From a virus (taxonomy: Duplodnaviria; Heunggongvirae; Uroviricota; Caudoviricetes), in IMG/VR virus record IMGVR_UViG_3300043411_002784: a stretch of 26,713 bases of DNA, one strand, 5' to 3'. A program made the translations under genes and the position numbers. Position 1 is the stretch's first letter. Each line of letters begins with the position of its first letter. The notes beneath the pieces are model-generated. The model did not search any database. It was not told the DNA's origin and worked only from the letters and a program-made list of their open reading frames with translations. Below, in pieces: positions 2,650 through 23,917 of this stretch.

Positions 2650-5600
2650 ATGCCTACGATGCCCAACGGAGCCACGCTGCCTCAGTCGGCGTTGCCCATG
2701 CAGCCTACGCTTCGGCCTCAGGCCCCTAACCCTGCGGCGCAGATCAACACGCAACAGGCGGGCGGACCCGGTCAAGGCGGAGCGGCGACGGCGGCAGGCG
2801 TCCAACAGGTGGCTCAACAGCAGGGCGTGGGCGTCCCCTCGCCCACGCACGGGCAAGCGGCTCCCCCTCCACAGCCTGCCGCGGGGCCTCCCGCCGCGGC
2901 CTCGCCCCCGGTGACTCCGCCCCCAGTTCCCCCAGGCTTCGCTCCCAACAGTCAGGGCCAGGTGGTCTACCCGCCAGGCCAAGGCCCCGTCACGGAAAAG
3001 GCCAAGCAATTGATTCCCCAACCCAACGCTCCCATCGCTGCGGAAGCGCGTGGTCCCCAAGGCATGCCCATGAACGATCCCTCGCTCAACCCGTTCAACG
3101 TGCGGACGGCGGCTGACTGGGATGCCAGGCTCAAGCAGCTCAAGGAGCGTCGCGATCCTCTGGGCCTTGAGGAAGACCCCGACCATGATCCCGAGCGGGA
3201 TTGGGTCGGTAAGCACGCCATGGCTGCCGCTGGCCTTGATACGGCGGCCGAGAAAGCGCTGGACATCGCTAAGCGTGCCGCCTCGCTTCATCAGGGCGGC
3301 GTGGGCCAAGGCCTGCAACCAACGCCTGCCGTCGGGCTTCATAAGACGGCCTGGCACCATTCGCAACCTGTCGCCGGGACTAATGCGGCGACCCCCGTGA
3401 AGAATGCCTCTGAGCGTGCCGTCGCGCTTCGTACGTCCGGCCCTGTGTGTCGGACCGTGCAAGACGGCCATGGCTACGCAGTCGTTAAGCATGCCGCCTT
3501 GCTTCAAGTTGGCGGCCATGTCGTCGGACCTATGGACGACGAGCCTGTCGACGGGCTTCATACGTCTGACCAACTCCAGCAGGACCAAGAGACGGAAGGC
3601 GACGAGCTGATGGCTCGGGCTGCGACTCTGGGTAAGATGGCGGGTCTATTGTTCAAGACGGCTGGCCAGGGGGCGTCCCCATCGATCGCCGTCGCGGGCT
3701 ACACGGCTAACGGCCAAAACGCCCTCGACCAGGTGAACCGGGCCATTGCCCGCCGCCAGCCGCGCCGCCCGTACGTCGAGAACGACAAGCAATCCGCCGC
3801 GCCGGGGCTCGTCCCGCAGCCGGCCATGCCGACGGCTCCCGCGTTGCCGCCGGCGTTCGCCATGCCTGCCGCCGGGCCTAGTACGACGGCCGCCAAAGTG
3901 AACGCAATGCCGTCCGCCGCCTCCGCTCGTCCCACGATCCAGACGGCTCCGGCTGCTGGAGCGATCCGTCCCGCTGTGCCTGCCGCGCGGCCTGGTAGCG
4001 CTGCCCCGATGCAGACTAATGCCAAGCCCAAGCCCCTGGTCCCCGCGGGCACGGGCTCCAGCAAGATGCCCGCCGTCCCAGGCGGGATCAAGAAAGCGTT
4101 CTTCGGTCCGCTCGGCGGGGGCATGGTTGGCGCTGCCGCCGGTCGCGTAGGCACGAAGATACTCGGAGCGATGACTGGGCCGTCGACTCCCGCCGCTGCG
4201 CCCAAGCCGCCAATGCCGCCAACGCCTAAGCCGGCCCCGACGCCGGCTGCGGCCATGAAGCCGCCGGCCCCTGCGCCGGCGAAGCCGCCGATGCACGTCG
4301 TGCAGGATCCCAAGCTCATGCGCCAGGGCGTGACGCCGACGCCGCCTCCTACGCCTGCCGCACGGCCTAGCAGCGCCGGCTTCGGCTCACTGACTCCGCC
4401 TGCCGTGCCGCCGATCAGTCGCCCGCCGATCACGCCGCAACCGGGGCTAGGCGTGCCGCCAGTTAAGATGCCGCAGAAAACGCCGCAACAGCCGTCGATG
4501 GACGAGTTCTGGCGGTTCCGGTCGCGGATGCCTCAGAACATGGATCCCGGGTTCACGCCGAACTTCACGCCGCAACAGACGTGGCTGGAACAGGAGCTGG
4601 GCATGCCCGCCGGCTCGTGGAACATGGATCCCGGGTTCACGCCGGACGTCCCGCCGCAGCAGTCGCCGGCCGAGAAGATATTGGGGGTGCCTGCCGGGTC
4701 GCTCAACAAGGACCCTGGCATGACGCCGCCGCAGCCTGCCGGTCCCGCAGCTCCCGACATGCTGCAGCAGCTAAAGGCGAGCGAGTTCAACAAGGAAGCC
4801 TGGCTCGGGGCCTTGGCCCGCGGAGCCGGCAAGATGCTGGGCGGAGCCGGCAAGGCCGTGGGCGGAGCTGCAGCTCGGCTCGAAGGGGCCGCCGTACCCA
4901 AACTGCTGTCCAAGATGGCGCCCGCTGCGCCTGCCGCCGCGGCCAAGCCCGTGGCTCAGGGCCTTGAGTCGCTCGCCATGCGTCCCGCACAGGCCGCTGG
5001 TCAGGCCGCTAGCAAAACTCTACCCATGGCCGCCGACTCGACCATTGCCATGAGCCCCGCCGTCCGCCAGCAAGCGATGGACGCCGCCAAGCGGAACGCC
5101 ATCCAACTGGAAGGCCGTCGCGCGGCGGCCCAGGGACAGCCCTGGAACCTCTCAGGAGCCCCCTCGCCCGCTCAGGCGGCTGCGGCGCGGGCTCGCACGG
5201 GACTTCCGCCTGGCGCCGCTCCTAGCGGCCCTGGGGCGGGCGTACGCCCCGTGCCTGGTCAAACGCCTCCCGTCGGGCCTGGTATGACGGGCACTGTCCC
5301 GAAGCAGCCAGGAGCGATGCCTGCCGCCGGGCCTAGTGCGGCGGCGACGGACCCACTGTCGGCCGGTCTCGGCGGCCGCGCCGCCGCACTCGGTCGTCAA
5401 GCCGGCAAAGCGACGCTCAATACGGCCAAGAGCCTCCCGGGCGCCGTGGCCATGGGTGCTGGCATGACCGCGGGCGTCCAAGGGCTCGATGCGGCGATGA
5501 CGGCGGCCGATCCCCAGGCTCCCGGCAACCAAGGGGGCGGCGGGGGCTTCATGGATTCGATCAAGGGAACGGTCGGCTCGTGGCTGGGGGTCGACCCTGG

Positions 5601-6300
5601 CAGCGTGAAGGCGTTCCAAGGACTCCAGGGCGAGCTCGACGCTGCGGGCATCAAGGTGATGGACGACAACGGGCAGCCCTTGGGGCTCAACGACATCATG
5701 ACCCAGGCGATGCAGAGTCCCCAGGGCCAGAAGATGCTCGTCGAGCGAGCCCCCGAGATCATGGCGCAAGCCTTGGAGGATCCCGAGAAGGCGGGACCGC
5801 TGATGGAAGGCTTCGCCGGCTCGCTGGCCAGCCTCTCGCCTGAAGCGAAGGCCCGGTTGGCGGCTGATCCCAACGCTGCGGGCATCCTGTCGTCCCTCAT
5901 GGGCGGCGGCGAGGGGATGATGGGCGGCCTCGCCGGCGGCGCGCAGCAGCTCTGGACGATGTTCCAGCAGCTCGATCCGACGCTGCAGCTGCTCATCGGG
6001 GGCGGCCTCATCGCCGGGTTGACGGGCCTGCTCAGCGGCAGCGGCATGCTGACCGCCGGCGGACTCGGGGCGCTGGCGGCGGGCGGCCTCGGAGCCTATT
6101 ATGGCGACGAGATCGGCGCGATGTTCGGGGGCGGCGAGCAACAGCAGCCGCAGCAACCTCTGGGCCCGCGATCGATGGCTCCCATGCCGTCGCTCGTGCC
6201 TCAGCAGTTGTTTGGGCAGGGCGGCCCGCGGGGGCTGATCAACCCCGCTTTGAAGATGCAAGGCCTCGACCCCAACACGGGGATGCCTCAAGGATCCTAA
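2650..6300 (+). CDS. Large Pro/Ala/Gly/Gln-rich low-complexity protein (1216 aa) with a C-terminal Gly-rich hydrophobic segment; possibly virion-internal
   Basis: 3.6-kb uninterrupted ORF; internal 28-aa repeats in frame; hydrophobic LLIGGGLIAG...GGLGAYYG near the end. The functional label is inference only. Confidence 0.85.
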   Translation: MPTMPNGATLPQSALPMQPTLRPQAPNPAAQINTQQAGGPGQGGAATAAGVQQVAQQQGVGVPSPTHGQAAPPPQPAAGPPAAASPPVTPPPVPPGFAPNSQGQVVYPPGQGPVTEKAKQLIPQPNAPIAAEARGPQGMPMNDPSLNPFNVRTAADWDARLKQLKERRDPLGLEEDPDHDPERDWVGKHAMAAAGLDTAAEKALDIAKRAASLHQGGVGQGLQPTPAVGLHKTAWHHSQPVAGTNAATPVKNASERAVALRTSGPVCRTVQDGHGYAVVKHAALLQVGGHVVGPMDDEPVDGLHTSDQLQQDQETEGDELMARAATLGKMAGLLFKTAGQGASPSIAVAGYTANGQNALDQVNRAIARRQPRRPYVENDKQSAAPGLVPQPAMPTAPALPPAFAMPAAGPSTTAAKVNAMPSAASARPTIQTAPAAGAIRPAVPAARPGSAAPMQTNAKPKPLVPAGTGSSKMPAVPGGIKKAFFGPLGGGMVGAAAGRVGTKILGAMTGPSTPAAAPKPPMPPTPKPAPTPAAAMKPPAPAPAKPPMHVVQDPKLMRQGVTPTPPPTPAARPSSAGFGSLTPPAVPPISRPPITPQPGLGVPPVKMPQKTPQQPSMDEFWRFRSRMPQNMDPGFTPNFTPQQTWLEQELGMPAGSWNMDPGFTPDVPPQQSPAEKILGVPAGSLNKDPGMTPPQPAGPAAPDMLQQLKASEFNKEAWLGALARGAGKMLGGAGKAVGGAAARLEGAAVPKLLSKMAPAAPAAAAKPVAQGLESLAMRPAQAAGQAASKTLPMAADSTIAMSPAVRQQAMDAAKRNAIQLEGRRAAAQGQPWNLSGAPSPAQAAAARARTGLPPGAAPSGPGAGVRPVPGQTPPVGPGMTGTVPKQPGAMPAAGPSAAATDPLSAGLGGRAAALGRQAGKATLNTAKSLPGAVAMGAGMTAGVQGLDAAMTAADPQAPGNQGGGGGFMDSIKGTVGSWLGVDPGSVKAFQGLQGELDAAGIKVMDDNGQPLGLNDIMTQAMQSPQGQKMLVERAPEIMAQALEDPEKAGPLMEGFAGSLASLSPEAKARLAADPNAAGILSSLMGGGEGMMGGLAGGAQQLWTMFQQLDPTLQLLIGGGLIAGLTGLLSGSGMLTAGGLGALAAGGLGAYYGDEIGAMFGGGEQQQPQQPLGPRSMAPMPSLVPQQLFGQGGPRGLINPALKMQGLDPNTGMPQGS
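2874..2901 (+). repeat. Pseudoknot repeat inside CDS
   Basis: GCC-T-GCCGCGG-GGC-CTCCCG-CCGCGGC-C; both stems perfect. Confidence 0.7.
3222..3571 (+). repeat. Pseudoknot repeat cluster inside CDS, 7 copies (3222, 3273, 3324, 3366, 3414, 3489, 3543)
   Basis: S1 variants GGC/GCC, GCG/CGC, GCC/GGC, GCA/TGC; start-to-start distances 51, 51, 42, 48, 75, 54 nt are all multiples of 3. Confidence 0.85.
3864..4381 (+). repeat. Pseudoknot repeats inside CDS, 3 dispersed copies (3864, 3978, 4353)
   Basis: e.g. GCC-T-GCCGCGC-GGC-CTGGTA-GCGCTGC-C at 3978. Confidence 0.65.
4537..4728 (+). repeat. 84-nt (28-aa) tandem repeat, about 2.3 copies, NMDPGFTP...LG(M/V)PAGS
   Basis: AACATGGATCCCGGGTTCACGCCG identical at 4537 and 4621; degenerate third copy at 4705. 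Confidence 0.9.
5265..5346 (+). repeat. Pseudoknot repeats inside CDS, 2 copies (5265, 5319)
   Basis: GCC-T-CCCGTCG-GGC-CTGGTA-TGACGGG-C and GCC-T-GCCGCCG-GGC-CTAGTG-CGGCGGC-G. Confidence 0.7.
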
Positions 6301-6805
6301 GCCTGTCGTCTGGCTTCGTAGGGCGACCAATCGGTCCAGCGTGCAGACGCCAGGACTCGATCGTCGTCGGACTTGGAGACGGCCGTGTGAGTGTGCGCCT
6401 AAGCCTGTCGTCTGGCTTCGTAGGGCGACGGCTAGCCGGTAGCCTGGCCGGCGGCAAAGACGACCAAGATGCTGTGCCTGCCGTCTGGCGTTGTAAGACG
6501 GACGTCGGTCGTTGTCTAGCCGGCCGTTGGTCTGCTCGTGCCTGCCGTCCGGCTTGATAGGACGAGCCAAAATCCGCATCCGAGTGCTCGTGCCTGCCGT
6601 CTGGCTTGTAAGACGGCCAATAGGGGGAAGGATTGAGCTTGCCGCCGAGCTTCGTACGTCGGCCCGACTTCAAGTGTCACTGAGCCTGCCGCCTGGCTTC
6701 GTAAGGCAGCCTCGATGCCGCAACCGGTCGTGCCTGCCGTCTGGCTTCGTAGGACGGCCGAACGCGTCTTGGACCTGAGCTTGCCGTCGAGCTTTGTAGG
6801 CGGCC
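6301..6805 (+). repeat. Pseudoknot repeat array, first part, 9 copies (6301, 6403, 6476, 6540, 6592, 6637, 6684, 6732, 6779) with unique spacers
   Basis: Typical unit GCC-T-GCCGTCT-GGC-TTCGTA-GGACGGC-C; starts immediately after TAA of the large ORF. Confidence 0.95.
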
Positions 6806-6840
6806 TCCGTGCCGCAAATTGACGGACAAGAAAGAAGAAA

Positions 6841-6941
6841 GCCGGAGTAGCTCAAATGGTAGAGCGGCGGGAGTGACCGCGGCGAAACCCTATTACTGCT
6901 GCAGCAGATGGGTAGTGCGGGTTCGAGTCCCGTCTCCGGCG
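6841..6941 (+). tRNA. tRNA-like RNA with intact acceptor, D and T arms but a non-canonical anticodon arm and oversized variable region (possibly degenerate tRNA-Ser(TGA))
   Basis: GCCGGAG/CTCCGGC acceptor stem; TA-GCTC-AAATGGTA-GAGC D arm; GCGGG-TTCGAGT-CCCGT T arm; discriminator G; no encoded CCA. Confidence 0.75.
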
Positions 6942-6945
6942 TTGA

Positions 6946-7752
6946 GCCTGCCGCCCGGCGTCGTTGGGCGGCCGGGGGTGATCTCGATTTCGCAATCTGA
7001 TCGCGCCTGCCGCCTGGCGTCGGGCCTCGTACGACGGCCGATGGGGTCGGGGCAGCCCATAGCTAAAAAATTATCACATGATAAGTTTGTCGCAGGACTT
7101 TGTTCCGCGACCTTGTGGCCACTGAGTTCGAGCCTGCCTGCGGGCTTCGTACGCCGGGCGCACCTGGAGACGCCGTCTTCGCCTATGTCTGCCGCAAGAC
7201 TTTGACCTGCGGCCCACGAGACCGTGCGGGTTGCGGCCTCAGCCATGAACGCTCGCGCCTGTCGACGGGCTTCGTACGCCGGCCTGACTGGGACGACGCC
7301 GACCGCCGGATCTGGTAAGCTGATTCGCTACTACGCTCTGCCGTCGAGCTTCGTCCCACGGCCTTGCGATCAGGGGCAACGACGGCCTACCATCGCGATT
7401 CCGCAATCAGACGGCCTTCGCAGGAAAGACATTACGCTTGCCGTCGAGCTTTGTTCGCCGGCCTGCTCGCAGCTCCTCGCTGCGCCAGAACGTGCCGCGT
7501 CGTTTGCTCACGCGGCCCATCGTATCGCACCGGTTTGCGCCTGCCGTCGGGCCTCGTGCGTCGGCTTGAGCTTGCCAGAGGTCCTGGTATGCTCGCAGCC
7601 ATGCTTGCCGTCGAGCTTCGCATCGCGGCCAAACGGACCCGCTGCCGACGGACCCGATGTCGACGGACTGAATGCAGCTACTCGCTGCGTGCGGCGTCGC
7701 CTCGTAACGCCGCCATCGTCTCGTGCTTGTCGCCTGGCCTCGCAGGGCGGCC
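6946..7752 (+). repeat. Pseudoknot repeat array, second part, 12 copies (6946, 7005, 7132, 7187, 7257, 7335, 7436, 7490, 7539, 7603, 7687, 7725)
   Basis: Includes S1 variants GTC/GAC (7187), ACG/CGT (7490), GCG/CGC (7687), GCT/AGC (7436, 7603). Confidence 0.92.
7071..7084. promoter_or_regulatory. Operator-like near-palindrome TTATCACATGATAA
   Basis: One mismatch to the 1754 palindrome; preceded by A6. Confidence 0.6.
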
Positions 7753-7797
7753 ACAATGTAACCGGGATCCTCCCCTCATTTCCTCAGGAGACGTCCG

Positions 7798-8133
7798 ATG
7801 CTGAGCACCGTATTCATCGACGCGATTCACGGCACGCTGTTCCTCAAGGGACTCGCGCTGCTGCAAGGCCTGCTGATCTACATCATGCTGGTTCGCTGCT
7901 CGGGCCTCGGCCCCAGTCATTCGACGGCGACGCTCTACCACAACACGGAGCAGCGGCTGATCTATGCGCTGCTCGCCGTCGGCGCGGTCTACGTCCAGCT
8001 GGGCCTGCTCTGGCACTGGTTCGAGAAGGCGCTGGACAACGGCCCGTTGTCGGGGCTGCTGCAGGACGTCTACAAGCTGCTGTTCGACACCTACACCGTT
8101 TGTTGTGCTACGCCTGCCGGCGGGTTTTGTTAG
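7798..8133 (+). CDS. Small integral membrane protein (111 aa)
   Basis: AGGAG Shine-Dalgarno; 2-3 hydrophobic stretches; the stop lies inside the 8112 repeat copy. Confidence 0.8.
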   Translation: MLSTVFIDAIHGTLFLKGLALLQGLLIYIMLVRCSGLGPSHSTATLYHNTEQRLIYALLAVGAVYVQLGLLWHWFEKALDNGPLSGLLQDVYKLLFDTYTVCCATPAGGFC

Positions 8134-8366
8134 CCGGCCCCAAATGTGCGGCGACGAGCGCAAGCGCACTCGTTGCGCACTCGTCAGGCCTGCCAGCGGG
8201 CCTTGTTCGCTGGCCCGAAAGATGATGGCAAATATGCCTGCCGCGCGGCTTTATTGCGCGGCCCGGCACTCGTTTGTCTGCGTGAACTGCGCCTGGCATC
8301 AGGCCTTGTTTGATGTCCCCCGCTCTTTTTTTGCGCTACGCCTGCCGACGGGCTTCGTCGTCGGCC
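8112..8366 (+). repeat. Pseudoknot repeats, 5 copies (8112, 8188, 8236, 8291, 8340)
   Basis: S2 stems differ in sequence yet pair: GCCAGCG/CGCTGGC, GCCGCGC/GCGCGGC, GGCATCA/TGATGTC, GCCGACG/CGTCGGC. Confidence 0.95.
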
Positions 8367-8396
8367 ATTGATCTTAAGGGCAACAAAGGACCGCCT

Positions 8397-8819
8397 ATGA
8401 CATTTAGTGAACTTGACGCCGCCGATCAGCAGCGTCGCCAGCGGGACGAGGACCGCGAAGCCAAAAGCCTGGCCGCCCGGCAGGCGTTCATCGAGCTGCT
8501 GGCCGACCCCGAGGTCCGCAACGGCGTCGACACGGTCGCAAAGGCCCAGGAGCTGATCGATCAGATGGAAGAACAGATCCCTGGCGAGTCGCTGCCGCCT
8601 TGCTACGACTGGGCGGTGGCGAAGCGCAACCACCTGGAGAAGTCCTTGACGCTAGACGATCTCGCCAACGCAAGGCATGAAGCGATGCAGGCCAACGTCG
8701 ACGAGCAGCTGGGCTTCTCGCCCACGCCCGAGGCCCAGACCCGCATGATCCGCCGGCTGATCGAGCTGCTGGCTCGCGCCGAGGTCACCATTGAAATGCT
8801 GCAGAAGTCATGCCGCTGA
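8397..8819 (+). CDS. Hypothetical helical protein (140 aa)
   Basis: ATG at 8397 after AAGGA, in frame with track ORF 8310..8819. Confidence 0.85.
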   Translation: MTFSELDAADQQRRQRDEDREAKSLAARQAFIELLADPEVRNGVDTVAKAQELIDQMEEQIPGESLPPCYDWAVAKRNHLEKSLTLDDLANARHEAMQANVDEQLGFSPTPEAQTRMIRRLIELLARAEVTIEMLQKSCR

Positions 8820-9119: not shown

Positions 9120-9187
9120 CGCCGATATTTAGCCGCCTGGCGTGTCGCCGGCGGCGCGTGTCACCCTCTCTTAGAAGGAACGTTGTG

Positions 9188-9691
9188 ATGAGAAATCTAT
9201 TGTTGAGCCTTGTCGCCTTGACGCTTGTTGCGGCCGGGCAGTCCCACGCAGCGACCCTGACGCTGACCAACCAGTCGGCCAATTCGACCTTCTTTGCGGT
9301 GGCCCCCGAGCAAGACTACTTTGATTACGACCACCGCTACGCCTCGCTGAACCAGACCGGCGCACCCGCGGTCGACGTGCAGACGAGCACCTTCTGGACC
9401 GACGCCAATCAGTTCTGGCTCTTCGGGGCCGACAACAAGGGCGTCTTGCACACGATCGACCTGAACCCGATGCCGACGCTGGTCAACGTGACGCTGCACC
9501 AGATCGTCAACGGTCAGCAGCGCAGCACCTACCAGTATTTCTTCGGTCAGACGACCAACGGCGTGATCGCCGAGCAATGGCTCCCCGTGGTGACGCGGAC
9601 GTTGGCGCCCGCCGGGGTGCCGGAACCGTCGACGCTGGCCTTGGCCGCTTTGGGCCTCGTGGGCGCAGCGTTCCGTCGTCTGCAGCAGTAA
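9188..9691 (+). CDS. PEP-CTERM sorting domain-containing secreted protein
   Basis: N-terminal signal peptide (MRNLLLSLVALTLVAAGQSHA) and C-terminal VPEPSTLALAALGLVGAAFRR (PEP, transmembrane helix, basic tail). Confidence 0.9.
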   Translation: MRNLLLSLVALTLVAAGQSHAATLTLTNQSANSTFFAVAPEQDYFDYDHRYASLNQTGAPAVDVQTSTFWTDANQFWLFGADNKGVLHTIDLNPMPTLVNVTLHQIVNGQQRSTYQYFFGQTTNGVIAEQWLPVVTRTLAPAGVPEPSTLALAALGLVGAAFRRLQQ

Positions 9692-9749: not shown

Positions 9750-10068
9750 GCCTGGCGTTCGGCTTCGTCAGGACGCCCCGGTATCACGGCGCCCAGGCGT
9801 CGCGGTGCGTCGGAACGCCCGTAGCGGTGGAGATTAGACCAAGCCTGTCGTCTGGCTTCGTAGGGTGACTGCGAATGTCACCCGTGAAGGCGACCCGGCG
9901 GATGCGATGAACCTGTTGACGAATTAAGCCTGTCGTCTGGCTTCATAGGCCGACCAACCGGGTCGCCAGTGGAAGACGACCCCAAACATTGCCTGTTCGC
10001 GTCTGTCGACGGACTTCATGCGTCGGCCCTACCCCCATATCTGTGTCCGGCCAGTTCATAGCCGGGCC
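9750..10068 (+). repeat. Pseudoknot repeats, 5 copies (9750, 9843, 9928, 10001, 10041)
   Basis: Includes GTC/GAC (10001) and CTG/CAG (10041) S1 variants. Confidence 0.92.
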
Positions 10069-10301: not shown

Positions 10302-10327
10302 CCTGGACCATCTCCGAATGAACCTGT

Positions 10328-10448
10328 GCGTGTCGGGCCGCCTGATAGCCCGGACGAACTGTGCCTCTGTTTCCGCGTGCCAGGCCGCCTCGTCGTCTGG
10401 ACCATCTCGGCACGACTCGAAGCGTGCCCCGTCGCTTCGTGCGGGGCC
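10328..10448 (+). repeat. Pseudoknot repeats, 3 copies (10328, 10375, 10422), all with S1 GCG/CGC
   Basis: e.g. GCG-T-GCCCCGT-CGC-TTCGT-GCGGGGC-C; 47-nt period. Confidence 0.9.
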
Positions 10449-10502
10449 ATCCCAGCCGCCGTTGTTTCCCTTTCACCTCTTTTCACCCTTGGAGAATCTT
10501 GC

Positions 10503-10892
10503 ATGAATCTCAGTCGCGCCGCTCAGTACGCCATCGTGTCGATGGCTCAGCTACGCACGACCGGCGACCCCGTCCCCTGCTCCCATCTGGCCAAGCGGGG
10601 CGACATGCCCGAACGGTTCCTGCTGCAGGTGCTGCGCAGCCTGGTGACCGCCGGCCTCGTGAAATCCCGTCGCGGCGTCGACGGGGGCTACAACCTGGCC
10701 AAACGGCCGAACGAGATCACCCTGGCGATGATCATCGAAGCGATCGACGGTCCGGTCGCCGTCGGATCCTTCGAGGTGCTGCAAGCGTTGCCCTCGGACG
10801 CTCTGTCGCACGTCGCCCGGGCGCTGAAGCACGCCAACAGCGAGTCGCTGCGCCAGCTGTCGCGAGTCACGCTTTCCCAGCTCGCCTGTTAA
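10503..10892 (+). CDS. Rrf2-family winged-helix transcriptional regulator, lacking the Fe-S Cys triad
   Basis: YA...LA...MPERFLLQVLRSLVTAGLVKSRRGVDGGYNLAKRPNEITLAMIIEAIDG matches the Rrf2 signature; GGAGA Shine-Dalgarno. Confidence 0.92.
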   Translation: MNLSRAAQYAIVSMAQLRTTGDPVPCSHLAKRGDMPERFLLQVLRSLVTAGLVKSRRGVDGGYNLAKRPNEITLAMIIEAIDGPVAVGSFEVLQALPSDALSHVARALKHANSESLRQLSRVTLSQLAC

Positions 10893-11787: not shown

Positions 11788-12198
11788 ATGGACCGTAGAA
11801 CCGCTTTGCGTTGCCTAGCCGGAGCTGCGGCGATGCCTTTGGTTGCGCCTGCAATCGCTTCTGCCGTCGTCGTTCCGTCTCCCGACGCCATTTGGCGAGG
11901 CCTGGAGGTTTCGAGCGTCGCCGGTAAGCATTGCGTCGCTCGTTACGACGGGCTCGCCGGCACGATCGTGGCCGGGCTGTGGGACGAGCCGTTGTCGGTT
12001 GAAGACGAAAATCGGTGGCTGGACGATCCTCGTTGGTTCTATACGTCGAAGCCTTACAGCGTGTGGGCGATCGACGTGCCGAAAAATCTGACGTCGCAGG
12101 AGCTGACCGGCTACTACCAGCAGGCGCGGGACGGGTTTCAAGCGTTCCCGAGTCTGCCGTCGAGCTTGCCGCGACGGACCCTTGCGCACGTCCTTTAA
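11788..12198 (+). CDS. Protein with a twin-arginine (Tat)-type signal peptide
   Basis: GGAGA Shine-Dalgarno; MDRRTALRCLAGAAAMPLVAPAIASA. Confidence 0.75.
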   Translation: MDRRTALRCLAGAAAMPLVAPAIASAVVVPSPDAIWRGLEVSSVAGKHCVARYDGLAGTIVAGLWDEPLSVEDENRWLDDPRWFYTSKPYSVWAIDVPKNLTSQELTGYYQQARDGFQAFPSLPSSLPRRTLAHVL

Positions 12199-12326
12199 GC
12201 CTGCCGTCCGGCTTCGTATGACGGCCCATCCGCACAATCTTCTCTACGCCTGCCGTCCGGCTTGATGCGGCGGCCTCGCCAATTTCTGCACGGACCAAAC
12301 CTGCCGTCTGGTTTCCCATGTCGGCC
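12152..12326 (+). repeat. Pseudoknot repeats, 4 copies (12152 degenerate and in-gene, 12199, 12248, 12299)
   Basis: 12199 abuts TAA; 12299 has S1 ACC/GGT. Confidence 0.88.
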
Positions 12327-12370
12327 TGTCGCAAGCATGAGTGCGGCAAAAGATAAGAGGGGAACGCCGG

Positions 12371-12592
12371 ATGAGATTCAACCTGCCGTTCCTGCTCTGG
12401 CTCGCCGCCTTCGTCGCCGTTGCGGCGTTTAGCGGCCAATGTTGGTACGATGCTCGTCCGGACAAAGCGGGCGACGCCAGATATATCTTTGATTCCGTTG
12501 GCTGGGGAGTCACCGTCGCTGCGCAGGCCTGCATCGTGTTCCCGGCGATTCTCGGCAGCCTCTGGCTCGCCTGGCGTCGTCGCAAACCTTAA
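12371..12592 (+). CDS. Small two-helix membrane protein (73 aa)
   Basis: GAGGGG Shine-Dalgarno; two hydrophobic segments and a basic tail. Confidence 0.8.
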   Translation: MRFNLPFLLWLAAFVAVAAFSGQCWYDARPDKAGDARYIFDSVGWGVTVAAQACIVFPAILGSLWLAWRRRKP

Positions 12593-12619
12593 CCTGCCGC
12601 CTGGTTTCGTCGGGCGGCC
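12592..12619 (+). repeat. Pseudoknot repeat overlapping the stop codon (S1 ACC/GGT)
   Basis: ACC-T-GCCGCCT-GGT-TTCGTC-GGGCGGC-C. Confidence 0.9.
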
Positions 12620-12637
12620 AATGTCGTAATTGTCGTC

Positions 12638-13171
12638 ATGAAACACCGCCAACTGCTTGCCACCGTGCTGATCGACGCGCTCGCTCCCGAGGCCGTCGGT
12701 CCCGAGCTGCTCGACGCGACGATCAATCACGCCTGCACGAAGGTGCTCAACGCCCTCTACTCGGAGGAGCTCGATCTCACCGTGAAGATGCCGAAGGGTC
12801 TGACCGTTAAGATCAACGTCGGCTTGGTCACCTTCGGGCGGCCCGTGCTCGTTCACGGCAACGCGACGGGCATGAGCCCCCATCGGCCGATCGTTCACGC
12901 TCACTTCGAGCCTGACGAGTCGACGGATCTGGACATCTACCGCTCGATGCACGAGGCGCTCAGCGCCATGCCCGCGCTCTACCAGGCGAACTGGGAGCGC
13001 GATAACCTGTTGCTGCAAGCCTGCCGCGACGTCGTCGCCGTGCACTCGGGAGACGAGTTCCTGGTGAAGAGCCTCGACCAGCGGCTGCGGCAATCACACC
13101 CGTTCGCCCAGGAGAAGGATCTCGATGAACCGGCTACTAATCTTCCTGCTGTTGGCTGCCCTGACGGCTAG
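12638..13171 (+). CDS. Hypothetical protein (177 aa)
   Basis: ORF track; consistent + strand tiling. Confidence 0.75.
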   Translation: MKHRQLLATVLIDALAPEAVGPELLDATINHACTKVLNALYSEELDLTVKMPKGLTVKINVGLVTFGRPVLVHGNATGMSPHRPIVHAHFEPDESTDLDIYRSMHEALSAMPALYQANWERDNLLLQACRDVVAVHSGDEFLVKSLDQRLRQSHPFAQEKDLDEPATNLPAVGCPDG

Positions 13172-13581: not shown

Positions 13582-13601
13582 TTATCGCGCGAAAACAATC
13601 T
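13582..13601. promoter_or_regulatory. Operator/promoter-like TTATCGCGCGAAAACAATCT
   Basis: Resembles 1754 and 7071; shares GAAAACAATCT with 23812. Confidence 0.5.
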
Positions 13602-13617: not shown

Positions 13618-13917
13618 ATGTTCGACGCGCCGTCGCCGCTTGTTCACGTCGTCATCTTCTGCGCCGCGGCCCTGACGTGCTGGCTCGTTTACAGCACGTT
13701 CAAGGCCCTCGACTGGGTCGTCCGTTATCACGCCGCGACGCCTATCGGCCGGCGGATCATGCTGGCCAACGCCAGTCGCGAGAAGAATGGCTTGCCGCCC
13801 CTCACTGACGAGGAGGAGTCCGACTACATGCACCTGCTGCTTTGCCAGGAGTGGGGCATTCCCGCTCACTACGATCCAGCCGACGACCCTGACGGGGAGA
13901 TCTGGCATGCGGTCTAA
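13618..13917 (+). CDS. Single-pass membrane protein (99 aa)
   Basis: AAGGAG Shine-Dalgarno; N-terminal hydrophobic helix. Confidence 0.8.
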   Translation: MFDAPSPLVHVVIFCAAALTCWLVYSTFKALDWVVRYHAATPIGRRIMLANASREKNGLPPLTDEEESDYMHLLLCQEWGIPAHYDPADDPDGEIWHAV

Positions 13918-23808: not shown

Positions 23809-23818
23809 GAATTAACAC

Positions 23819-23917
23819 GTGAAAACAATCTCGTTTTCGCGACGCCGCTGGGACGCGCTGGCCTGGGCAGGCTATCTTGCGTTCATGACGGTCGTCGCCT
23901 GGATCACTTGGAGCTAA
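23819..23917 (+). CDS. 32-aa membrane peptide, absent from the ORF track
   Basis: AGGA before GTG; RRRW followed by a hydrophobic helix. Confidence 0.5.
   Translation: MKTISFSRRRWDALAWAGYLAFMTVVAWITWS

Follow-up and report, generated by a model that had tools for sequence, protein, structure and literature searches.

A tandem array of a small H-type pseudoknot that also marks gene ends in an uncultured phage-like genome

Positions 6301–7752 of the 26,713-nt stretch of viral DNA analysed here (the window; IMG/VR record IMGVR_UViG_3300043411_002784), which is part of a 90.7 kb contig, are 1.45 kb in which a short structured repeat alternates with unique sequence. The question raised by this locus is what kind of element such an array represents. 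The original prediction likened it to clustered regularly interspaced short palindromic repeats (CRISPR) and considered an RNA cut into pseudoknot-plus-spacer units acting as guides or antisense RNAs, or a multivalent scaffold. The array is the densest cluster of a small pseudoknot, uncatalogued in Rfam, that also marks most of the nearby gene ends. The reading favoured below, to which we give roughly a one in two chance, is that of a conserved inter-operon junction of cis-acting RNA pseudoknot beads, which would be barriers or docking sites for one protein.

For a covariance model, 75 copies were aligned and stem 2 alone was supplied as pairs. Within 6299–7753 it gave 22 matches with scores of 22.8–42.8 bits, all on the + strand, compared with the 21 copies counted originally; the difference is probably due to a weak copy at 7085 or 7336. 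No match with E<0.1 was found on the − strand of the whole window. The copies were also recovered by repeat finding, by structural scans and by a pattern search (54 matches vs 3.7 expected), and an anchor consisting of unpaired positions only found 46 sites on the + strand and 4 on the − strand, as compared with 7–9 in shuffled sequences. A chance origin of the copies is excluded. The start-to-start spacings of 45, 47, 48 and 47 nt described for a tight block within the array were confirmed, the linkers there being 18–20 nt long. Over the array as a whole, linkers measure 10–74 nt, plus a single 140-nt gap occupied by a tRNA-like gene.

The GC content by codon position is flat over 6301–7750, whereas the genes on either side do show a coding signal; hence the interval contains no open reading frame (ORF), as had been proposed. 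Scans of the array for a Shine-Dalgarno sequence plus a start codon revealed only nonsense ORFs running across the repeats, and no convincing small ORF.

The unit spans 32 nt, YYRA-GCC-U-7 nt-GGC-UUCGUA-7 nt-C, and is conserved from −4 to +28 with no conservation outside those limits. It has the layout of an H-type pseudoknot, with a stem 1 of 3 bp (usually GCC/GGC), a loop 1 that is a single U, a stem 2 of 7 bp, a loop 3 of 6 nt (YUNRUN, most commonly UUCGUA) and a trailing C. The 3′ strand of stem 1 lies inside the loop of stem 2, and both stems covary. The loop-1 U is invariant in 75/75 copies, and the G opening stem 2 is invariant too. A 1-nt loop 1 spanning a 7-bp stem 2 is classical H-type geometry, known for example from the T2 gene 32 pseudoknot.

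Across the 75 copies, 93% of cells are paired. Two-sided changes were counted in 131 cells, as compared with 29 in shuffles, and the observed value was reached by 0 of 500 shuffles. When the register was slid, pairing fell to 27–46%. The nine top pairs of a blind mutual-information scan are exactly the nine variable pairs of the predicted fold. Stem 1 is realised as GCC/GGC, GCU/AGC, GCG/CGC, GGC/GCC, ACC/GGU, GUC/GAC and CCC/GGG. The list of copies had been selected partly by pairing, and the test was therefore repeated with the anchor of unpaired positions only. Its 46 + strand sites have all three stem-1 pairs in 36 cases and at least five of the six free stem-2 pairs in 35. In L256, a related contig that lay outside model building, the model gave 61 matches at E≤0.01, all on the + strand, and stem 1 is paired in 55–58 of 58 aligned copies, with GCC/GGC, GCG/CGC and GGC/GCC used in a covarying manner. 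As judged by covariation, the units are genuine H-type pseudoknots.

A search of Rfam 15 gave no matching family, even at E≤10, and no riboswitch or ribozyme match. Two extensions of the fold were rejected. An extra pair between position −2 (R) and the second U of loop 3 is possible in 68/75 copies but shows no covariation, and in a 5-bp stem 1, which would make a terminator-like hairpin with a T-rich tail, the added positions covary with stem 2 rather than with the U and G, both of them invariant. Separately, the closing G-C of stem 2 is replaced by G.A (3′ end GGAC, not GGCC) in 32/58 L256 copies and at 2505, 6476, 10328, 10375 and 12152 of the window, which hints at a bulge or at an alternative closing pair with the invariant trailing C.

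The repeat is not specific to the array, as a CRISPR-like arrangement would have it. The whole window has 63 model matches at E≤0.01, all on the + strand, of which 41 lie outside the array, mostly between 1.7 and 12.6 kb, where clusters of 1–6 copies occupy nearly every intergenic gap; beyond 13 kb there are only four. Some copies lie within the ORF at 2650–6300. The first copy after a gene is separated from the stop codon by 0 (±1) or 10–13 nt in 15 of about 18 genes of the window and of L003, the second relative. The gene ends concerned are 1696, 2491, 6300, 9091, 10892, 11705, 12198, 12592, 17644, 21575 and 23234 in the window, and 1745, 2410, 6184, 7571, 8608 and 8952 in L003. The three bases before stem 1 are TAA, TGA or TAG in 17/56 window copies, seven of them within the non-coding array. 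At unbiased sites G.T exceeds A.C (39 vs 20). An element acting at the RNA level is favoured by the excess of G.T, by the orientation of the copies, which strictly follows that of the genes, and by the fixed distance from the stop codon, a spacing that can be sensed only by mRNA and ribosome.

The distribution of gaps between stop codon and pseudoknot is bimodal, and the fold would lie inside a terminating ribosome in one register and just outside it in the other. The giant low-complexity ORFs (window 2650–6300; L256 4327–10326) are rich in pseudoknot copies, with about 30 at a period of about 48 nt in L256 5641–7319. The GC content at third codon positions (GC3) in window 2700–3600 disagrees with the frame of the ORF at 2650–6300, the 5′ third of which may be non-coding.

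No DNA or protein match to the window was found in phage and plasmid collections, and known protein families are nearly absent from it, being represented only by PEP-CTERM, Rrf2 and a phage zinc finger. Two related lineages carry the motif. L003 is a 9 kb contig from the Joint Genome Institute (JGI) whose proteins are 40–72% identical to those of the window; L256 belongs with L254–L259, from several Logan runs, at 35–59% protein identity. The latter group was reached via protein P0007, and an exhaustive protein search otherwise gave distant domain relatives only. L003 has 38 model matches at E≤0.01, all on the + strand. The motif-bearing region begins past the same small gene in all three genomes, and the 10 kb upstream in L254, which include glycosyltransferases, contain no copy. 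Contigs carrying relatives of a 93-aa protein (L244–L253) were devoid of the motif, except L249, which matches L003. A degenerate 19–20-mer, scanned against viral, genome and metagenome contigs, gave only single chance matches, with a full stem 2 in 0/240 loci, and viral contigs searched with each flanking protein yielded no related locus.

The array itself occupies the same position in the three genomes, downstream of the giant low-complexity ORF, with a 225-aa gene interposed in L256. In each case it is divided by a palindrome, TTATCACGTGATAA. The window array has 22 copies, 11 before and 11 after the palindrome; that of L003 (6183–7204) has 16, divided 2 and 14, and that of L256 (11057–12027) has 19, divided 7 and 12. 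The start-to-start distance has a sharp mode at 47–49 nt in the three genomes, in arrays and small clusters alike. Syntenic copies maintain the fold by compensatory changes, as in the pairs 1708/L003 1756, 6301/L003 6185 and 10903/L003 8620.

The sequencing runs listed with DNA of this genome come from freshwater, groundwater and wastewater, none of them an RNA run. Near-identical DNA is present at low depth in contigs of four other metagenome runs. One of these, the X3 contig from wastewater, joins 7382 to 7459, so that 76 nt between similar 3′ half-repeats (7383–7458, a linker and most of copy 17) are removed; the junction has a 6-nt ambiguous overlap at the ends ACGGCC/CCGGCC. Substitutions in the near-identical strains are few. 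That at 7750 changes G.U to A-U, and that at 7028 falls on a variable loop position. The others are in linkers, except 7690 (loop-1 U of copy 21), which is seen in one low-depth contig and may be an error.

The linkers behave differently from the units. No linker is common to the three arrays, in which only pseudoknot cores and the palindrome match, and no linker position is conserved beyond −4 and +28. Against the rest of the window and L003, on either strand, the linkers have no longer exact match than shuffled linkers. They would thus be unconstrained filler rather than guides. Other hallmarks of CRISPR arrays are also missing. Their repeats of 23–47 nt are near-identical, while the copies here are 63–100% identical to the reference, with compensatory changes in the stems; their spacers are of near-constant length, and their repeats occur only within the array, near cas genes. 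As had been stated, no cas or nuclease gene was found in the window. The gene searches covered ~40 window ORFs with Pfam and ten with PADLOC, and neither a transposase, an RNA-binding domain, an integrase or recombinase, nor a Y1 transposase domain was found, nor any TnpB, ToxN or AbiQ-like gene. On each defining feature tested, the reading as a CRISPR-like, guide or ToxI-like array fails. Covarying sense-strand pseudoknots in a non-coding stretch stay compatible with two parts of the original prediction, the multivalent scaffold and a non-coding RNA that is structured; the guide or antisense role, with dispersed units, imperfect repeats and linkers of this kind, is not supported.

Read from its 5′ end, the array starts with copy 1 (6301–6327, 38.1 bits, 10/10 pairs formed), which follows the TAA of the ORF at 2650–6300 with a gap of 0. 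Copy 2 (6403–6429, 35.6 bits) is an exact 32-nt duplicate of it including 5 nt upstream (6296–6327 and 6398–6429), with unrelated flanks. Copies 3 (6476–6502, 34.3 bits) and 4 (6540–6566, 32.0 bits, two mismatches in stem 2) precede the tight block, which begins with copy 5 (6592–6617, 29.7 bits, loop 3 of 5 nt) and continues with copies 6 (6637–6663, 35.2 bits, stem 1 GCU/AGC), 7 (6684–6710, 37.0 bits), 8 (6732–6758, 42.8 bits, nearest to the consensus) and 9 (6779–6804, 24.5 bits, loop 3 of 5 nt). The tRNA-like gene (6841–6941, + strand) comes next, and 4 nt past it copy 10 (6946–6972, 39.4 bits). A 5′ half-copy at 7005–7018 on the + strand, found by pattern and structural scans, is a partial duplication overlapping copy 11 (7012–7038, 35.9 bits), the final copy ahead of the palindrome.

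Past the palindrome lie copy 12 (7085–7111, 27.2 bits), which abuts it, copy 13 (7132–7158, 34.3 bits, stem 2 degenerate), copy 14 (7187–7213, 27.0 bits, stem 1 GUC/GAC), copy 15 (7257–7283, 37.7 bits) and copy 16 (7334–7362, 24.7 bits), the loop 1 of which carries a 1-nt insertion. Copy 17 (7436–7462, 33.4 bits) is the one affected by the deletion. The remainder are copies 18 (7490–7516, 22.8 bits, stem 1 ACG/CGU), 19 (7539–7565, 33.8 bits), 20 (7603–7629, 27.2 bits), 21 (7687–7713, 28.2 bits, stem 1 GCG/CGC and stem 2 GCGGCGU/ACGCCGC) and 22 (7725–7751, 33.5 bits), which ends 46 nt ahead of a start codon at 7798. The linkers contain a second minor repeat, CGATT(T)CGCAATC(T/A)GA, at 6984–7005 and 7396–7417, and a 15-nt tandem occurring once, at 7633–7662 (ACGGACCCGCTGCCG then ACGGACCCGATGTCG).

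The first gene past the array (7798–8133, + strand) encodes 111 aa of no known family and shows a GC3 signal. AGGAG is located 6 nt before its ATG, its TAG stop falls within the next pseudoknot (8112–8138), and its ortholog at L003 7263–7571 has 41% identity. Further downstream, a gene for a PEP-CTERM-tailed protein (9158–9691) lies between pseudoknot clusters and is not at this place in L003. In L256, small genes lie at 12133–13049, one for 65 aa and one for a 94-aa DUF6527 protein (phrog_15183). Four pseudoknots, spaced at 45–54 nt, bracket each of them; the arrangement is cassette-like, and its gene content is unlike that of the window and L003. A 134-aa gene called at L003 6615–7019 has no coding signal, spans six pseudoknot copies and is probably a false call, and a short L003 ORF with a good Shine-Dalgarno sequence begins at about 6817.

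The predicted A-tract and palindrome were both found, at 7065–7070 and 7071–7084, respectively; the A6 tract and the 14-bp palindrome (TTATCACATGATAA), which have no strand, together split the array at 7065–7084. Exact or near-exact versions of the palindrome occur at 1754–1767 and 7071–7084 in the window, 1809 and 6280 in L003, and 952, 3509 and 11415 in L256. Weaker versions at 13582–13595 and 23812–23825 of the window stand ahead of blocks starting at 13618 and 23922. Gene 1793 and its orthologs have the palindrome 25 nt ahead of their start codons. The L003 copy at 6294 abuts it in the same way as copy 12, and in L256 the next copy begins 5 nt past it. From these positions, the palindrome would mark the starts of transcription units, as a DNA site resembling an operator or promoter. 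A conserved Rrf2-family gene at 10326–10892 is a candidate for its binder.

The tRNA-like gene is present in the 140-nt gap as predicted, but it is aberrant. The acceptor, D and T arms are intact, and about 49 nt replace the anticodon arm and the variable region. RF00005 matches with 45.2 bits against a cut-off of 29, with the anticodon arm unaligned (37 nt instead of 17), and ARAGORN rejects the gene, returning either none or an implausible intron solution. A tRNA scan of the relatives L003, L256 and L254 found none, and among the three lineages the gene is limited to the window.

On the reading that we favour, the stretch would be the junction of two transcription units in an uncultured phage-like genome, made up almost wholly of tandem, lineage-specific 32-nt RNA elements. 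Its first part, where 11 pseudoknots and the tRNA-like gene lie, would be the upstream unit's untranslated 3′ trailer, and its second part a 5′ leader of about 700 nt of the downstream unit, with the other 11 pseudoknots. The pseudoknots may work in cis, as modular structural beads along the mRNA. At gene boundaries such beads would stop 3′ exonucleases, keep Rho from loading or ribosomes from running on, and/or be the docking site of one RNA-binding protein; in the array, many beads would cover a long untranslated RNA and deny entry to Rho or exonucleases. The number of copies would shift through repeat-to-repeat recombination.

Several points weigh against this proposal. Transcription through the array is assumed, and no recognisable sigma-70 −35/−10 partner accompanies the palindrome. 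For the tight block, nested minimum-free-energy folding gives no greater stability than in shuffles (z = +0.88), and since thermodynamic folding of this block did no better than shuffles on either strand, support for the fold comes entirely from covariation. To stop an exonuclease, a single pseudoknot should be enough; a simple barrier explains neither the multiplicity (4 copies at each junction in L256, 16–22 in arrays) nor the period of 47–49 nt, and both fit multivalent protein binding better. The invariant loop-1 U and stem-2 opening G, YYRA and the trailing C suggest sequence-specific recognition by a factor.

The alternative that accommodates these points is a regulon combined with a sponge, in which one RNA-binding protein of phage or host would read the gene-end pseudoknots and tune termination or mRNA decay, while the arrays would titrate or concentrate it as high-avidity sinks or assembly scaffolds, by analogy with CsrB/RsmZ and CsrA. 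It has been given substantial weight because tandem multiplicity, a fixed period and invariant single-stranded bases point to a protein reader. The single-stranded positions are invariant or nearly so (loop-1 U, stem-2 opening G, YUNRUN, trailing C and YYRA), the packing is close, with the same sharp period in three genomes, single dispersed sites exist alongside large arrays, and the array has been kept in three lineages. No candidate protein emerged from the ~40 window ORFs, however, none of which has an RNA-binding or nuclease domain; clusters of 3–5 copies also stand between ordinary genes, the array differing from them in size only, and expression would have to be presumed here as well. 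This alternative is possible but tentative. Similarly speculative, and drawn by the same analogy, is the idea of an undescribed phage post-transcriptional system with the pseudoknot as its recognition module and the arrays as multivalent scaffold or sponge for its protein. If this is true, single copies at a fixed distance from the stop codon would set the fate of each cistron, in a phage counterpart of Csr/Rsm logic.

Less likely is a selfish or neutral repeat, resembling repetitive extragenic palindromic (REP) sequences with their bacterial interspersed mosaic elements (BIMEs) or miniature inverted-repeat transposable elements, that enters permissive intergenic DNA by copying itself or through short-patch gene conversion, the array being a pile-up. 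The exact 32-nt duplicate with unrelated flanks speaks for it, and the stem-2 subfamily of this pair is met again at 9843 and 9928. Copy number varies among relatives and strains, copies occur even within the long ORF, and REP elements too cluster after genes. Yet about 160 copies in three genomes are all co-oriented with transcription, whereas BIMEs alternate; anchoring to stop codons is precise (0 or 10–13 nt); syntenic copies hold their fold through compensatory changes while linkers are saturated; the array and its internal palindrome are retained at ~40–70% protein identity; and the window showed no transposase. The spread of copies probably has a selfish REP-like origin, which would still leave unexplained the strict orientation, the stop-codon register and the conserved array with its internal palindrome.

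An element working at the DNA level is improbable. The copies would be single-stranded DNA hairpins for cassette exchange, like integron attC sites or the promoter early stem-loops (PeSLs) of T4, or else replication or priming sites. The gene content between clusters does differ, the window having extra genes at 8310–8819 and 9158–9691, L003 a small ORF inside its array and L256 other small genes with about four flanking copies each, and one repeat-to-repeat deletion was observed. Homologous recombination between any repeats would yield the same indels, however, and models of this kind give no part to stem-1 covariation or to a fixed stop distance. The window yielded no integrase or recombinase, and the promoter half of PeSLs was not found; attC sites measure 57–141 nt, with an R″/L″-L′/R′ layout, a GTTRRRY core and IntI, and the unit of 27–32 nt has no such boxes. 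The related reading as iterons of an origin was rejected, as structure rather than sequence is conserved and the copies are spread over 11 kb.

A processed array, whose pseudoknot-plus-linker units would be guides, antisense RNAs or toxin neutralisers, is very improbable: the guide-sized linkers of the tight block and the existence of phage pseudo-ToxI arrays of pseudoknot repeats (PMC3475682) speak for it, and the dispersal of the unit at gene ends, repeat identity of just 63–100%, unconserved and matchless linkers of 10–140 nt, the absence of cas, TnpB, ToxN and AbiQ-like genes from the window and of any array match from the phage collection speak against it.

Among known repeats, the element belongs to none of REP/BIME, STAXI, PeSL, T7 RNase III sites or pseudo-ToxI. 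It resembles the REP/BIME elements of enterobacteria as a short (30–40 nt) extragenic structured repeat that is present in many copies after genes or in operons and is clustered. REPs affect the stability of mRNA 3′ ends and, near a stop codon, translation. The present unit differs in being a pseudoknot rather than a plain imperfect palindrome, in its direct orientation on a single strand instead of an alternating one, in forming arrays of up to 22 copies at a 47–49 nt period, and in being restricted to a single part of a phage-like genome; neither a RAYT transposase nor a Y1 domain was seen in the window. The RNase III hairpins of T7 are likewise structured RNA at gene boundaries of long phage transcripts, and protect 3′ ends once processed. 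They are about ten single, long, irregular hairpins, with no tandem arrays or pseudoknots.

The STAXI RNA motif (RF01728; Weinberg et al. 2010, PMC2864571) consists of tandem small pseudoknots in mobile-element DNA with unexplained function, and for both elements RNA versus single-stranded DNA has been debated. STAXI has only 2–3 units and occurs in Enterobacteriales, and its covariance model gave no match to the window at the gathering score or at E≤10. PeSLs of T4-type phages (PMC2839356, PMC4122927) are also short, structured and repeated; they flank small variable genes in plastic parts of phage genomes, where indels between relatives fall on them. They are composite promoter-terminator stem-loops, unlike the pseudoknot described here with its many tandem copies without intervening genes, and no sigma-70-like site of an early promoter was found in or beside the units, although the promoter type of the host may differ. 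The type III antitoxin ToxI and pseudo-ToxI (PMC3475682) form arrays of pseudoknot-forming repeats that can be phage-borne as well, but their 36-nt units are identical and contiguous, without linkers, and lie beside a ToxN/AbiQ gene, whereas the units here are joined by unique linkers. CRISPR arrays share the alternation of repeats with unique sequence and differ in their near-identical repeats, regular spacers and lack of dispersed copies, and in a leader, which, like a cas gene, was not found here.

Such arrays mimic CRISPR arrays, and gene callers set false ORFs over them, as at L003 6615–7019, which is a warning for annotation. The motif is a candidate for a new Rfam family. Few of the small structured repeats at phage gene boundaries have been explained, though they are common, and this case is unusually clean. 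With about 160 co-oriented copies in three lineages, it offers a testable RNA module that may insulate, stabilise or co-regulate cistrons on long phage transcripts.

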